Counted from the stretch's first letter, positions 3,637 to 6,430 are shown. The stretch is DNA of 64,000 nucleotides from an uncultured bacterium (GCA_964410905.1 CAYPIR010000001.1:21861-85860), one strand, 5' to 3'. A program made the numbers and translations. Notes: a model not told the origin generated them from the letters alone.

Positions 3637-4131
3637 CTATTGAGCCCCGTCCTTTCCCATTTCTTCTTCTTTTGCTTTTTTTGCCTTAAGCTTTTCGGCG
3701 TCCGTTTCGAGCGCGCTTTTTTCTGGCGTCCAGCCCGTGTCATCTTTAACTTCATGGATTGGGTCGGCAAGCAGCAATTCTTGCGCGTCGTTATATTCTG
3801 TAACAAACAATGCGAAATTTTCCGCTGTCGCAATTTTGCTATTAATTGCAGCCCCGCCCTTTCCATCTCCGCCGGCAACGATAAGCCCTTTTTCAACCAA
3901 CGCGTCAACAAATAATTTAAAATTTTCATCAATATTAGCAGGGACTCCCGCTATAGACTTTAGAGATGCCAAAACCGCTTCGCTAGATGCTCCTCCGATA
4001 ATGCGCGCAAATACTTCCGTTCCAAGCGGATTCATTCCGTAATAAATGCCCGTTTCTGAATTAATGACGATTGCGATTCCATCCGCAATGTCGGAAAACA
4101 TTTTCGATTCGTTTAAAACATAATTTGCCAT
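3637..4131 (-). CDS. PqqD-family (RRE-like) peptide-chaperone-like protein with long C-terminal low-complexity tail
   Basis: The N-terminal ~90 aa (…FSDIADGIAIVINSETGIYYGMNPLGTEVFARI…) resembles the PqqD/RiPP-recognition-element fold. The C-terminal ~70 aa are acidic and Lys-rich (…AEKLKAKKAKEEEMGKDGAQ). The ATG lies 1 nt from the upstream kinase stop, so the two are translationally coupled. Confidence 0.65.
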   Translation of the reverse strand: MANYVLNESKMFSDIADGIAIVINSETGIYYGMNPLGTEVFARIIGGASSEAVLASLKSIAGVPANIDENFKLFVDALVEKGLIVAGGDGKGGAAINSKIATAENFALFVTEYNDAQELLLADPIHEVKDDTGWTPEKSALETDAEKLKAKKAKEEEMGKDGAQ

Positions 4132-4132
4132 T

Positions 4133-5221
4133 TTATTTTTTCTCCTTGTTTAGTTTGTTGCAAAACTCTCGCAAGCATTCGACATTGGCATAAATATCGG
4201 GTGAGAGATTTATTTGATAAAAGTTGAAGTCCCTAACAAAATTCATTAATTTGCGAACTGTTGCAATATCAAGCTTGTCGCCCATCTGATTGATAGTTGA
4301 ATGAATAAGCTGCGTAATCGCTCTGCCTTTTTCGCACGACGCAATTGAGGGAGCTTTGTCAGATACAATTTCAGGGAAAATGCACGCTTTGATCGCGTAG
4401 TTTTCTCTGAACTGTTTGTGATAATTAGAAATGCTAAATACGTATTTATCACGCCTCGCGTTGTTGGAAACAAACTTGCCGTCAAACTCATAATAAAGTT
4501 CGTTCCACATTCGCGGGCTCAAAGTAACAATGGAATATATTGGCGAACTGAGCAATTTGCCATTCGTTTGTTTTTCTAAGATAAGATAATCATCTGAAAC
4601 ATATTCAAAGCCTTGCATCATAGACAATACCGCCAAAGTAGATTTGCCGCGTTGTCCGCGCGCGCATACCAAAACTCCGCTGCCGTTTAATCCTACCACC
4701 GCCGCATGAACAAGGTTTGCCGTCGGCGATTTGATGACCTTGTTGAAAAGCTGCACAAAAATATGCCCTTGTTTTATGAACTCTTCCGGGTCAAGATTTT
4801 CAGCGGCATAATAGTATGTATTGTTTTTTGCATCGTAAGCATTAACAAAACCTGTCGTTGGAAAAACAGAAATGTTAGAGCCGTCATCGCCTTTAATGTC
4901 GACATCAATCCAATCTTGATGTAAGACTAACTTTTCAATTCTCGCGCGCATTTTGCCGTGCGAATCAAGCAAGGATTCTGACAACTGTTTTATTTTTGTT
5001 TCTTTCCAAATAACAAGCGTCGCGTCATAGCAATCCGAGTTTGATTTCAATGTAAAGGCGAGTTGTTTTTCAACAAGAGGCGTCCACTCTTTATGAAAAC
5101 ATTCAATTCGCAATGTCTTAGAACCTAATCGCACAAACCGTATCCATTCGCGCGTGTTTGTTTGGCGAATATTGCTATCAAGTTTTTGGACATATGCCGG
5201 CGCATCGCCTTTTATGAACAT
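4133..5221 (-). CDS. HPr kinase/phosphorylase-related serine-kinase-like protein (HprK-related kinase)
   Basis: The P-loop GLNGSGVLVCARGQRGKST is followed by YVSDDYLIL, matching the C-terminal catalytic domain pattern of HprK (GxSGxGKSE ... DD). Its start overlaps the stop of the upstream nucleotidyltransferase gene by 10 nt. Confidence 0.65.
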   Translation of the reverse strand: MFIKGDAPAYVQKLDSNIRQTNTREWIRFVRLGSKTLRIECFHKEWTPLVEKQLAFTLKSNSDCYDATLVIWKETKIKQLSESLLDSHGKMRARIEKLVLHQDWIDVDIKGDDGSNISVFPTTGFVNAYDAKNNTYYYAAENLDPEEFIKQGHIFVQLFNKVIKSPTANLVHAAVVGLNGSGVLVCARGQRGKSTLAVLSMMQGFEYVSDDYLILEKQTNGKLLSSPIYSIVTLSPRMWNELYYEFDGKFVSNNARRDKYVFSISNYHKQFRENYAIKACIFPEIVSDKAPSIASCEKGRAITQLIHSTINQMGDKLDIATVRKLMNFVRDFNFYQINLSPDIYANVECLREFCNKLNKEKK

Positions 5222-6216
5222 TTTCGCTGCTCCCGCATTGAATTAAATCCCTCAGCCATTTTTAAAAACAGCGCTATTAACTGATCGCTTTTGCCAATTG
5301 TTTTAAGAAATCTGTGATAAGGCTTATCTTTTAACCAATTTTTCATTACTTCAAAATTTTTAATCGCATTTTTCAGCTTTAATTTTTTGCAGCGCCATTT
5401 CACATCATAGACATAAAATCTGTAAAAAACCAAACGGTTCCTATAATTTGCTGCGGATTTTTTTAGCTTTTTATTGTGGAGAAATAAATCGGGCAAGAGA
5501 TTGGGCGATATGCGATTTAAAAGTTTTGCGGCAAAAAACAATGTCGCTTCGCAAGATGCCTTTTGGGCATTTTGAAAAACTCTTTTCCAATCAAAATTAG
5601 GATTAGTTTCGAGCAAATATTTAATGTCAAAAAGAGCAAACAAAACTCCGCCTAGGGTTGTTTTGTAATGCAAATTTCGGCTTATGTTGGTCAGCGCGAC
5701 AAATACAAAATCCTCAGGGGTAGGCACAAACGCTCTCGCGCCGAAAACATCTTGCAAAGTTGCCCGCGAAAAAAAGTCTCTCATTAAACTTTTGTCATAA
5801 TCAGGGACATCAAAATCAATAAAACGATGTATATCAACCGTTCCTTCGTCCGTTCCTTTTGGATGTAAGTCCGCCGAGTAGGCATTAAATTCCGCGACCG
5901 TATAGCCGAGATTTTTTGCTATCTCAAGCGACTTTCTATAATCTTCTTCGCGTACCAAAATATCTATGTCGCCCATTGCTCTGGGTAATTCCGGTCTTAT
6001 ATATTTCATCGCGCCGCCTTTTAAAATCATTGGAATAATTCCGTTTTGGTTAAGGGCGCGGACGACTTTGCCAAAATGCGCGATAAGTTTGAGGTTGGCA
6101 AAACGATGAAATTCCAGAACTCCTTTTAAACGCGGATAAATTAGGTCGGGCACGTCAAAATTAGGACGGGATTTTATTGTATACGAGAGAAGTAAAATTT
6201 TTCTGCCATCCGCCAA
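5212..6216 (-). CDS. nucleotidyltransferase family protein (uncharacterised NTase, PF14907-like); true start probably upstream at ATG 6428-6430 in a repeat-dependent frame
   Basis: Minimal-nucleotidyltransferase motif GDIDILV is preceded by LKGGAM. The track start is a TTG with no Shine-Dalgarno sequence. The same reading frame stays open for a further 56 codons upstream, running through the (CAAG)n tract to 6431 (protein-like sequence DTNRLSFLKEDKVFWAEEAFYQEIV...). Confidence 0.7.
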   Translation of the reverse strand: MADGRKILLLSYTIKSRPNFDVPDLIYPRLKGVLEFHRFANLKLIAHFGKVVRALNQNGIIPMILKGGAMKYIRPELPRAMGDIDILVREEDYRKSLEIAKNLGYTVAEFNAYSADLHPKGTDEGTVDIHRFIDFDVPDYDKSLMRDFFSRATLQDVFGARAFVPTPEDFVFVALTNISRNLHYKTTLGGVLFALFDIKYLLETNPNFDWKRVFQNAQKASCEATLFFAAKLLNRISPNLLPDLFLHNKKLKKSAANYRNRLVFYRFYVYDVKWRCKKLKLKNAIKNFEVMKNWLKDKPYHRFLKTIGKSDQLIALFLKMAEGFNSMREQRKCS

Positions 6217-6376
6217 TTCGATATCAAAATCGATGAGAAAATCATCTAGTGTTTTTTGCGTGGATTCTTCGCGGAAAGCAAGATCGATAAGTTTTTGGTC
6301 TTTTTGCGAAACAATTTCTTGATAAAACGCTTCTTCCGCCCAAAAGACTTTGTCTTCTTTTAAAAAACTTAATCGA

Positions 6377-6430
6377 TTAGTATCTTGCTTGCTTGCTTGC
6401 TTGCTTGCTTGCTTGCTTGCTTGTAGACAT
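6377..6430 (-). other. ATG-initiated 17-codon frame (MSTSKQASKQASKQARY*) running through the repeat; it is +1 out of frame with the nucleotidyltransferase ORF at 10 repeat units
   Basis: ATG at 6430-6428 (minus strand), stop TAA at 6379-6377. The frame joins the downstream nucleotidyltransferase frame when the unit number is a multiple of 3 (9 or 12). Confidence 0.55.
6384..6423 (-). repeat. tetranucleotide simple-sequence repeat (CTTG)10 on the plus strand, equivalent to (CAAG)10 / GCAA-type on the coding minus strand
   Basis: Direct count gives 10 perfect units. The repeat is translated as (SKQA)n in two frames. Confidence 0.95.

Follow-up and report, generated by a model that had tools for sequence, protein, structure and literature searches.

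What does a peptide-recognition protein of the PqqD type do when its gene lies, together with genes for a kinase and a nucleotidyltransferase (NTase), at the head of a series of glycosyltransferase genes? The question is raised by three consecutive minus-strand genes at positions 3637-6430 of a 64,000-nt stretch of DNA from an uncultured bacterium (GCA_964410905.1 CAYPIR010000001.1:21861-85860; hereafter the window, meaning the whole stretch). In reverse order of transcription, they encode a PqqD-like protein with the fold of a RiPP recognition element (RRE; RiPP, a peptide that is made by the ribosome and modified post-translationally), a P-loop kinase and an NTase. We find that the NTase, the kinase and the RRE protein, which bears an invariant tail, make up a conserved module of four parts together with a GT2 glycosyltransferase, and the best explanation of our observations is that the module starts cytoplasmic glycan-building operons in host-associated diderm bacteria. 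From this analysis we tentatively propose, as a possibility that still has strong competitors, that the triad is a phase-variable priming module for a phosphate-linked glycan on an RRE-held peptide or protein.

The three genes are closely packed. The stop codon of the NTase gene (5212-6430, minus strand) overlaps the ATG of the kinase gene (4133-5221, minus, 362 amino acids, aa) by 10 nt, and the kinase stop is separated by a gap of 1 nt from the ATG of the PqqD-like gene (3637-4131, minus, 164 aa). Translation of the kinase and RRE genes is coupled to that of the NTase gene. An earlier reading, made by a model from the sequence alone (the sequence-only reading), had described three tightly coupled minus-strand genes with this 1-nt gap and 10-nt overlap, and in these points its description was borne out. 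The two neighbouring GT2 genes that it had pointed out are also present: one of 557 aa at 593-2266 (minus; 135 bits) and a second, with a GTG start at 597, that runs off the window edge (<1-597, minus). A scan for sigma-70 promoters upstream of the NTase gene gave nothing convincing. The G+C content is 35-39% over bases 1 to approximately 6490, compared with approximately 48% in the adjoining upstream genes for electron transfer flavoprotein (ETF), ETF-quinone oxidoreductase (ETF-QO) and acyl-CoA dehydrogenase. These upstream genes form a housekeeping block (6492-12582, minus, approximately 48% G+C) encoding EtfA, EtfB, an ETF-quinone oxidoreductase-like flavoprotein and a 697-aa acyl-CoA dehydrogenase; the low-GC glycan island abuts this block, and the island border is the intergenic region with the repeat described below.

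Relatives of the triad were drawn from 659 kinase and 971 PqqD-like database matches, of which the best 120 of each were compared. These best relatives are 50-66% identical to the window proteins and are annotated solely as 'hypothetical' or 'PqqD family'. One PqqD-like protein, P0135, is annotated from 'unclassified Desulfovibrio' isolates. Neighbourhoods were compared in a genome set of 80 loci from species-representative genomes and in a second set of 80 metagenome loci. Among the hosts of the genome set are Gastranaerophilales/Melainabacteria, Alphaproteobacteria from the gut or of Rickettsiales-like type, Desulfovibrionaceae, and Planctomycetota and Spirochaetia of the termite gut. The NTase was found in 76, the kinase in 79 and the PqqD-like gene in 75 of the 80 genome loci, in the same order, which also holds in most of the metagenome loci; median gaps are 0 nt between NTase and kinase genes and -20 nt between kinase and PqqD-like genes. 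The association of the triad is far beyond chance, and the co-conservation on which the sequence-only reading had staked its grouping of the genes is found in about 75 of the 80 genome loci and most of the 80 metagenome loci. The triad always opens its operon, and we take the NTase gene as the first of the operon because nothing upstream of it is conserved.

The link to glycosyltransferases proved stronger than the mere adjacency noted earlier. An orthologue of the GT2 gene at 593-2266 is the next gene after the PqqD-like gene in 49 of the 66 loci with enough sequence, and some glycosyltransferase lies within the gene chain in 61 of these 66. Genes counted downstream are GT2 (175 open reading frames, ORFs), GT8 (33 loci), DUF4422 (21), GT32 (14), radical SAM (18) and aldo/keto reductase (18), accompanied by GalE, HAD, FkbM methyltransferase and transketolase halves and occasionally by fucosyltransferase (FucT), pyruvyl transferase, GT17 and GT1. 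Only one of 410 operon genes downstream of the kinase encodes a protein with at least four predicted transmembrane segments, and none of the downstream operon genes examined codes for Wzx, Wzy, a ligase or a polytopic initiating transferase. Because Wzx, Wzy and a polytopic initiating transferase are missing from these operons, a soluble priming step would be needed. In the priming role that we propose, the triad would supply this initiating step that the operons otherwise lack.

Gene fusions add detail to this organization. In a termite-gut deltaproteobacterial metagenome-assembled genome (MAG), one locus (L057) encodes a GT2-NTase fusion of 644 aa (4499-6433) with a (CA)25 repeat in front, which points to a direct functional link between the NTase and the GT2. 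In about half of the loci the kinase is a protein of approximately 500 aa with a fused paralogous PqqD domain that is without the tail motif described below; such loci still keep a stand-alone PqqD-like protein of 156 aa. An apparent PqqD-GT2 fusion in locus L019 was rejected as an assembly artefact, the XX at the junction coming from ambiguous bases. A protein of approximately 1000 aa encoded upstream of the NTase gene in Rickettsiales-like loci (cluster 27) was likewise set aside as a conserved target, being present in three loci only; by eye it resembles a MutS-like housekeeping protein, with a Walker-A-type GHNMSGKST. Three Gastranaerophilales MAGs (L024, L027 and L029) share a non-coding element of approximately 270 nt at approximately 11930-12200, directly after the PqqD-like gene, which splits the operon.

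The AAA_14/DUF4143 ATPase gene (2338-3531, minus), between the PqqD-like gene and the GT2 gene, lies outside the conserved module. It is indeed a neighbour, as had been reported, but it does not belong to the system: it was found in 0 of the 80 genome loci and is absent from every related locus searched, and because of this absence we regard it as a genome-specific insertion. It matches the PADLOC candidate defence family PDC-S01 with 94 bits. PADLOC gave no matches for any of the three triad proteins. The ATPase gene appears to have been inserted with its own promoter-like sequence in 3532-3636.

How the operon would be switched follows from the 5' end of its first gene. A tract of (CAAG)10 (6384-6423, minus; CTTG on the plus strand; 10.0 copies, 100% matches), the sole long perfect simple repeat in the 64 kb, begins 7 nt downstream of the ATG at 6430 (6428-6430, minus). 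The frame from this ATG reads MSTSKQASKQASKQARY and stops after 17 codons at a TAA (6377-6379, minus). From 6429 onwards the NTase frame runs through the repeat without a stop; a TAA at 6433-6435 closes it just upstream, and within it there is no ATG, GTG or TTG upstream of a TTG at 6216. The stretch from the repeat to 6216 nevertheless encodes 70 residues that align, invariant positions included, to the conserved N-terminus of homologues of approximately 400 aa (aligned consensus FYxEIVSxxDQKLLDLAF...TQ..LD.FL..WDIE). Because residues upstream of 6216 match this conserved region, we assign the gene to 5212-6430; ATG 6430 is the sole canonical start upstream of the conserved N-terminal region. 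The repeat-encoded (SKQA)n sits in an N-terminal stretch whose length varies among homologues. The sequenced state of 10 units is OFF, and 9 or 12 units would give a full-length enzyme of approximately 404 or 408 aa, the ATG being usable only if the repeat number is a multiple of three. Position 6430 had earlier been given as the end coordinate of the triad; with 10 units this ATG is out of frame, and the sequence-only reading had noticed neither the repeat nor the frameshift. Contingency loci are marked in sequence by a perfect repeat of this length, placed in 5' coding sequence so that its unit number sets the frame, and the tract is a predicted slipped-strand ON/OFF switch.

An alternative is that the NTase gene is a frameshifted pseudogene or an assembly error and that the repeat is functionless. 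The gene is indeed out of frame as sequenced, short-read assemblies are prone to wrong repeat counts, and no allele with another repeat count was recovered from Logan contigs or from a scan of metagenomes. We nevertheless consider this explanation very improbable. Beyond this point 389 codons are intact, their product sharing 45-50% identity with full-length homologues and keeping all catalytic residues, and the perfect repeat lies exactly between the sole start codon and the conserved region, in a segment of variable length. Moreover, Logan assemblies L001, L082 and L083, from two other runs, carry the locus and all end inside the repeat, as expected from the k-mer limit that makes Logan contigs end there; because these independent assemblies, three in number, break inside the repeat, we regard the repeat as real, although they give no allele counts. 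Finally, unrelated repeats occur at the same position in other lineages.

These other repeats differ in unit, length and placement. Locus L020 has G15 at 65 nt before the NTase ATG, between -35-like and -10-like hexamers recognized by eye; L040 and L057 have (AC)25 and (CA)25, each approximately 125 nt upstream of the NTase start; L056 has T15 at 49 nt, L065 has C18 at approximately 290 nt and L100 has G10 at 12 nt upstream; and L094 has (CACCGCA)11 at 273 nt upstream, at a contig end. Repeats are enriched near NTase starts: in the genome set the regions about these starts make up 2.6% of the sequence and contain 4 of 16 repeats (P = 6e-4), and in the metagenome set they make up 4.9% and contain 2 of 6 (P = 0.03); both statistics leave the window out, and L040 and L057 may share ancestry. 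That differing repeats converge on one position speaks for repeated selection for switching of the operon, as with surface antigens. Further homopolymer, di- and tetranucleotide repeats were observed farther downstream in L020 (9643-9656 and 10667-10677), L018 (14659-14670), L054 (14900-14909), L061 (16624-16655), L023 (20053-20086) and L032 (19994-20049), and several genes of these six loci may be phase-variable.

What the three proteins are bears directly on what they might do. The PqqD-like protein passes the cut-off of Pfam PqqD (PF05402; 28.5 bits against 23.4), and its residues 10-84 match the lasso-peptide protein TbiB1 by sequence profile (E = 6e-5). Its AlphaFold2 (AF2) model matches TbiB1 and the lasso B1 structure 6jx3 in Foldseek with target template-modelling scores of 0.83-0.84, and shows the winged helix, three-stranded sheet and beta3 edge of an RRE. 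The leader-binding beta3 strand is kept (TGiYyGmN, compared with TGTYFGLD in TbiB1), and the nearest NCBIfam models are lasso PqqD chaperones for 41 of 45 family members. The identification of this protein as PqqD/RRE-like thus stands on both sequence and fold. With a mean column identity of 58-67%, it is the most conserved protein of the triad, the other two reaching 49% and 45%.

The RRE domain occupies residues 1 to approximately 95 and is followed by a conserved C-terminal extension. A confidently modelled helix and strand (98-113) come first, and then the invariant motif DAQELLLADPIHEV..GW.PEK, which is modelled as disordered in the monomer (predicted local distance difference test score, pLDDT, below 50 from residue 125). 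The invariant columns of DAQELLLADPIHEV, residues 115-128, are encoded at 3748-3789 (minus); Tyr113 is nearly invariant, and Asp123, His126 and Glu127 are invariant. The motif is confined to the PqqD-like family in a scan of 1.84 billion representatives, and is a candidate docking motif or modification site. Short matches to it in that scan are fragments of PqqD-like proteins. Long proteins with five to eight matches (P0257, P0264, P0267 and P0273) were rejected as substrates; they consist of ankyrin, cadherin-like and other repeats, and the likeness is one of chance. The tail (LLLADPIHEVKDDTGWTPEK) is close enough to the ankyrin-repeat consensus (LLLDAGADVNVKDDSGWTPLH) to give the multi-repeat matches of P0267 and P0273, probably by chance.

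The kinase is a two-domain member of the PEPCK/HprK superfamily (PEPCK, phosphoenolpyruvate carboxykinase) outside any named family. The sequence-only reading had called it an HprK-related P-loop kinase, which holds for the fold and fails at the level of HPr kinase families. The catalytic His, Walker A motif and Asp-Asp pair follow one another in the order of the PEPCK/HprK P-loop kinase fold: H172 (4706-4708), GQRGKST (4637-4657) and D210-D211 (4589-4594, all minus) are invariant in the family and occur in the same order as in the HprK/P catalytic domain (alignment to 3tqf), and the AF2 model is confident (pLDDT 91.4). The score against Pfam Hpr_kinase_C is 21.3 bits, below the cut-off of 33.3, from a match of approximately 55 residues covering the stretch from the P-loop to the Asp-Asp pair, and that against the HPr kinase/phosphorylase model TIGR00679 is 18.1 bits against 240. 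Local NCBIfam matches of approximately 30 bits are to HprK-related kinases A and B, ScmC and HprK/P. A conserved C-terminal 'ELCIK' on many of the kinases was rejected as a modification tail, since it is an overlapping-frame reading of the sequence (ATGAACTATGTATTAAA) that encodes the PqqD-like N-terminus MNYVLN.

The NTase belongs to Pfam PF14907 (NTP_transf_5; 92.9 bits against a cut-off of 31.2). Residues G122, D138, D140, D171, D183 and H185 are invariant in 47 NTase sequences, and the catalytic DxD is encoded at 5962-5970 (minus). The enzyme is not minimal, as had been suggested earlier: it has approximately 400 aa, with conserved N- and C-terminal regions flanking the PF14907 catalytic core. 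Its sole solved relative is a faint match to LnuA (E = 0.46).

No published description of the module was found in literature searches, and its kinship to known systems must be read from their parts. To our knowledge, the only role known for HprK-like kinases and PF14907 enzymes is the tailoring of lasso peptides. The closest comparison is with PsmB1, PsmK and PsmN of Bacillus pseudomycoides, which act on pseudomycoidin and are discussed along with the kinases PadeK, ThcoK and SyanK; they represent the same three protein types, namely a B1-type RRE, an HprK-like kinase that depends on its Asp-Asp pair and an NTP transferase that depends on a DxD near residue 135. Kinases of the PsmK type phosphorylate a Ser of the peptide, and an Asp-Asp mutant is dead (PMC6993621, PMC8498205). 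PsmN, an 'uncharacterised NTP transferase', is required for the appearance of one or two hexoses on the peptide phosphate, and its D134A/D136A mutant is dead (PMC6993621); the DxD of our NTase resembles D134/D136 in position. A kinase of this type, the NTP transferase and a GT2 also co-occur in Butyrivibrio lasso clusters (PMC7533575). The module described here differs in having no precursor, macrolactam synthetase (C), B2 protease or exporter, in the 70-aa tail of its RRE, in its diderm, host-associated hosts, and in heading operons of multiple glycosyltransferases, with predicted phase variation.

These likenesses raise the alternative of a cryptic RiPP, in which a secreted phospho-glycopeptide would be made from a precursor that is encoded elsewhere or is too variable to detect. 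The RRE is of the lasso-B1 type, the kinase and NTase are of the types that tailor lasso peptides, and radical SAM proteins (18 loci) and DUF1796 papain-like peptidases (8 loci) occur downstream. A small-ORF search (18-89 aa) in 76 operons, however, gave only local families among near-identical loci. As the sequence-only reading had stated for this locus, neither the window nor the 76 related operons have a lasso cyclase, a protease or a conserved precursor. No C, B2 or precursor gene was found in window positions 1-6500 or among the conserved neighbour clusters of the 80 loci. The operons also have no exporter, with the one membrane protein among 410 downstream genes mentioned above; the RRE, unlike RRE-leader pairs, is conserved to an extreme degree across phyla; and phase variation driven by repeats is usual for surface antigens and not for natural-product clusters. 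We therefore judge a cryptic RiPP to be quite improbable, and less likely than the decoration of a surface glycan considered below.

Three further systems share parts of this architecture. HPr-rel-A (kinase TIGR04352, PqqD chaperone TIGR04353 and a PF14907 NTase) has the same three-part composition and is likewise uncharacterized, and the sequence-only reading had taken the triad for a catalogued system of this type. This assignment was not upheld: all 31 family kinases score approximately 30 bits against TIGR04352 (30.8 for the window kinase; best E = 2.3e-9), for which the cut-off is 200, and TIGR04353 is matched by one of 45 PqqD-like members (E = 0.0038), with no match for the window protein. 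Among the profile searches proposed as a check, PqqD and PF14907 thus pass their Pfam cut-offs, whereas Hpr_kinase_C, TIGR00679, TIGR04352 and TIGR04353 fail, and the family is distinct, without a model of its own. The SynChlorMet cassettes (ScmC, TIGR04249; ScmD, TIGR04248; PF27840) likewise pair an HprK-like with a PqqD-like protein, but they centre on radical SAM/SPASM enzymes and a peptide, neither of which is conserved here, and matches are weak (ScmD 27 bits, ScmC 19 bits, PF27840 faint) and well under the cut-offs. HprK/P and ATP-dependent PEPCK are 10-15% identical to the kinase, the N-terminal domain of which is unlike that of HprK/P, and the locus has no HPr or phosphotransferase system context. 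The module is set apart by an RRE-kinase-NTase cassette outside RiPP clusters, a fixed place in front of operons that hold glycosyltransferases only, the invariant tail borne by its RRE and recurrent, predicted switching through repeats.

If the chemistry of PsmK and PsmN is carried over, the priming reading can be set out in steps. The His, P-loop and Asp-Asp site of the kinase would phosphorylate a hydroxyl on an RRE-held segment of a peptide or protein; at the DxD site of the NTase, the phosphomonoester would be converted to give a sugar in phosphodiester linkage or a nucleotidyl intermediate; and the adjacent GT2, followed by soluble GT2, GT8, GT32 and DUF4422 enzymes, would extend the glycan. 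Slipped-strand mispairing would toggle this priming system across the population. We prefer a peptide or protein as the primed molecule because the characterized relatives are the lasso enzymes PsmK and PsmN, by analogy with which the mechanism is drawn. Candidate acceptors would be a protein encoded elsewhere or the invariant tail of the RRE protein itself.

The second of these candidates can be stated as a more specific proposal, which we regard as unlikely: the stand-alone PqqD-like protein may present itself and serve as the protein that primes or carries the glycan, not as a chaperone for a separate peptide. Segment 98-113 would fill the RRE groove like a leader peptide, thereby presenting the tail DAQELLLADPIHEV to the kinase and NTase, and a phosphate-linked sugar would be set on Tyr113, His126 or an acidic residue and elongated by soluble glycosyltransferases. 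If true, this would be a cytoplasmic, protein-primed glycan assembly, switched by phase variation, that replaces the undecaprenyl-phosphate carrier and the membrane initiating transferase.

The same tail admits a regulatory explanation, in which the PqqD-like protein is an adaptor whose tail is reversibly phosphorylated and/or nucleotidylated to control the co-transcribed glycosyltransferases. HprK/P, a kinase/phosphorylase with a regulatory role, has a small protein as its substrate, and the NTase-fold enzymes GlnD and GlnE uridylylate or adenylylate a Tyr of PII and of glutamine synthetase. The near-invariant Tyr113 and the invariant His126, Asp123 and Glu127 in a disordered conserved tail, and the retention of the stand-alone PqqD-like protein where the kinase has its own RRE, would fit such a switch. 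One would not, however, expect a regulator to make up three obligatory genes at the front of almost all these operons, or to be a target of ON/OFF phase variation, its phenotype when off being ambiguous; there is no sensor domain, and the GT2-NTase fusion suggests that the NTase works in the pathway and not on it. Regulation is, in our view, a distinctly improbable role for the triad and, like the cryptic RiPP, ranks behind the decoration of a surface glycan.

That last alternative would make the operon one for decorating the outer core of lipooligosaccharide (LOS) or lipopolysaccharide (LPS), or a capsule, in the manner of lic1 or of O-methyl phosphoramidate (MeOPN) modification. The kinase would have as its substrate a sugar, a core sugar or a small alcohol, which the NTase would activate or transfer as an NDP-linked or phosphodiester substituent, and the glycosyltransferases would build the rest on the lipid A-core, with the PqqD-like protein as a mere scaffold holding the enzymes. 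The lic1 operon of Haemophilus influenzae carries (CAAT)n in the 5' end of licA and encodes a choline kinase, a cytidylyltransferase and a transferase. The locus described here resembles it in that the first gene of an operon pairing a kinase with a nucleotidyltransferase has a tetranucleotide repeat close behind its start codon; the operon is predicted to feed a glycan and to be set ON or OFF by frame. The protein families are unrelated, and the present locus has an RRE protein besides.

Further points speak for such a decoration. The operons hold only soluble glycosyltransferases and related enzymes (GT2, GT8, GT32, FucT, pyruvyl transferase and GalE), as do LOS outer-core loci, and the NTase core is faintly like LnuA, which nucleotidylates a sugar hydroxyl. 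All hosts that could be judged are diderm. The host of the window has an outer membrane, too, because the window encodes a TolC-type efflux system: at 17075-22675 (minus) an MFS_3 transporter gene is followed by those for a MacB-type ABC protein, an HlyD adaptor and a TolC-like outer-membrane factor. Against it stand the RRE protein, which as the most conserved component, with its peptide-binding strand kept, is more than would be expected of a mere scaffold, and which is kept as a separate protein even where the kinase has a fused RRE; the absence of a conserved LicD-like or other phospho-substituent transferase, permease or core-specific gene; and the action of the sole characterized PF14907-type enzyme on a phosphopeptide. 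We consider this decoration somewhat unlikely as the function of the triad.

Priming on a peptide or protein is itself opposed by several observations. No acceptor was found, nor any conserved small ORF in the 76 operons. The tail of the PqqD-like proteins has no invariant Ser or Thr, and these proteins are without a C-terminal Ser such as lasso kinase substrates have. When whole structures are compared, the kinase matches best to PEPCK, which phosphorylates a small molecule, and operons of glycosyltransferases alone, with FucT and GT8, in diderm hosts also fit LOS outer-core loci; because of this PEPCK-like fold and LOS-like gene content, a glycan or small-molecule substrate stays in play. 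The putative homology to PsmK and PsmN relies on the literature and on neighbourhoods in Pfam and NCBIfam that the families share, and the chemistry of PsmN is unsettled, its authors allowing that it only makes a substrate for host glycosyltransferases (PMC6993621). As to the switch, repeat-length variants were not seen, a flank-anchored scan of metagenome contigs giving no matches and Logan contigs breaking in the repeat, and a repeat at the operon head is present in approximately 6% of related loci (8 of approximately 120 with a scorable NTase start).

Several other features of the window lie apart from the module. The best named matches of the host's GuaA protein come from Clostridia, at approximately 80% identity, despite the TolC-type efflux system. 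A low-GC islet (approximately 0.32) at 12730-14630 (minus), between the acyl-CoA dehydrogenase and glgB genes, holds a type II restriction-modification pair, REase_II (12730-13470, minus) and MTase_II (13467-14630, minus; PADLOC 270 bits). A second restriction-modification system, of the DpnII type, is found at 46699-49369 (minus) and comprises a DpnII endonuclease (47433-48290, minus) and a D12-class adenine methyltransferase (48287-49369, minus), adjoined by a 245-aa ORF (46699-47436, minus). Towards the end of the window, at 63351-63438, an imperfect 12-nt/36-nt tandem repeat (CTTTTTTTACCG; 5.8 copies) within a 204-aa ORF (62830-63444) encodes a repetitive Lys-rich segment.

Here we have described a module of gut, rumen, termite-gut and Rickettsiales-like bacteria that repeatedly gains hypermutable repeats. 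RRE/PqqD domains are usually taken as markers of RiPP pathways, and here such a domain is highly conserved outside any RiPP cluster. Should the triad instead serve LOS decoration, it would still represent an undescribed phase-variable decoration pathway. If, as we tentatively prefer, it primes a phosphate-linked glycan on a peptide or protein, this would be a new route of bacterial glycoconjugate initiation and would give PF14907 a general function. Priming would also identify, in gut lineages that have been little studied, such as the Gastranaerophilales, a variable trait of the surface or of host interaction.

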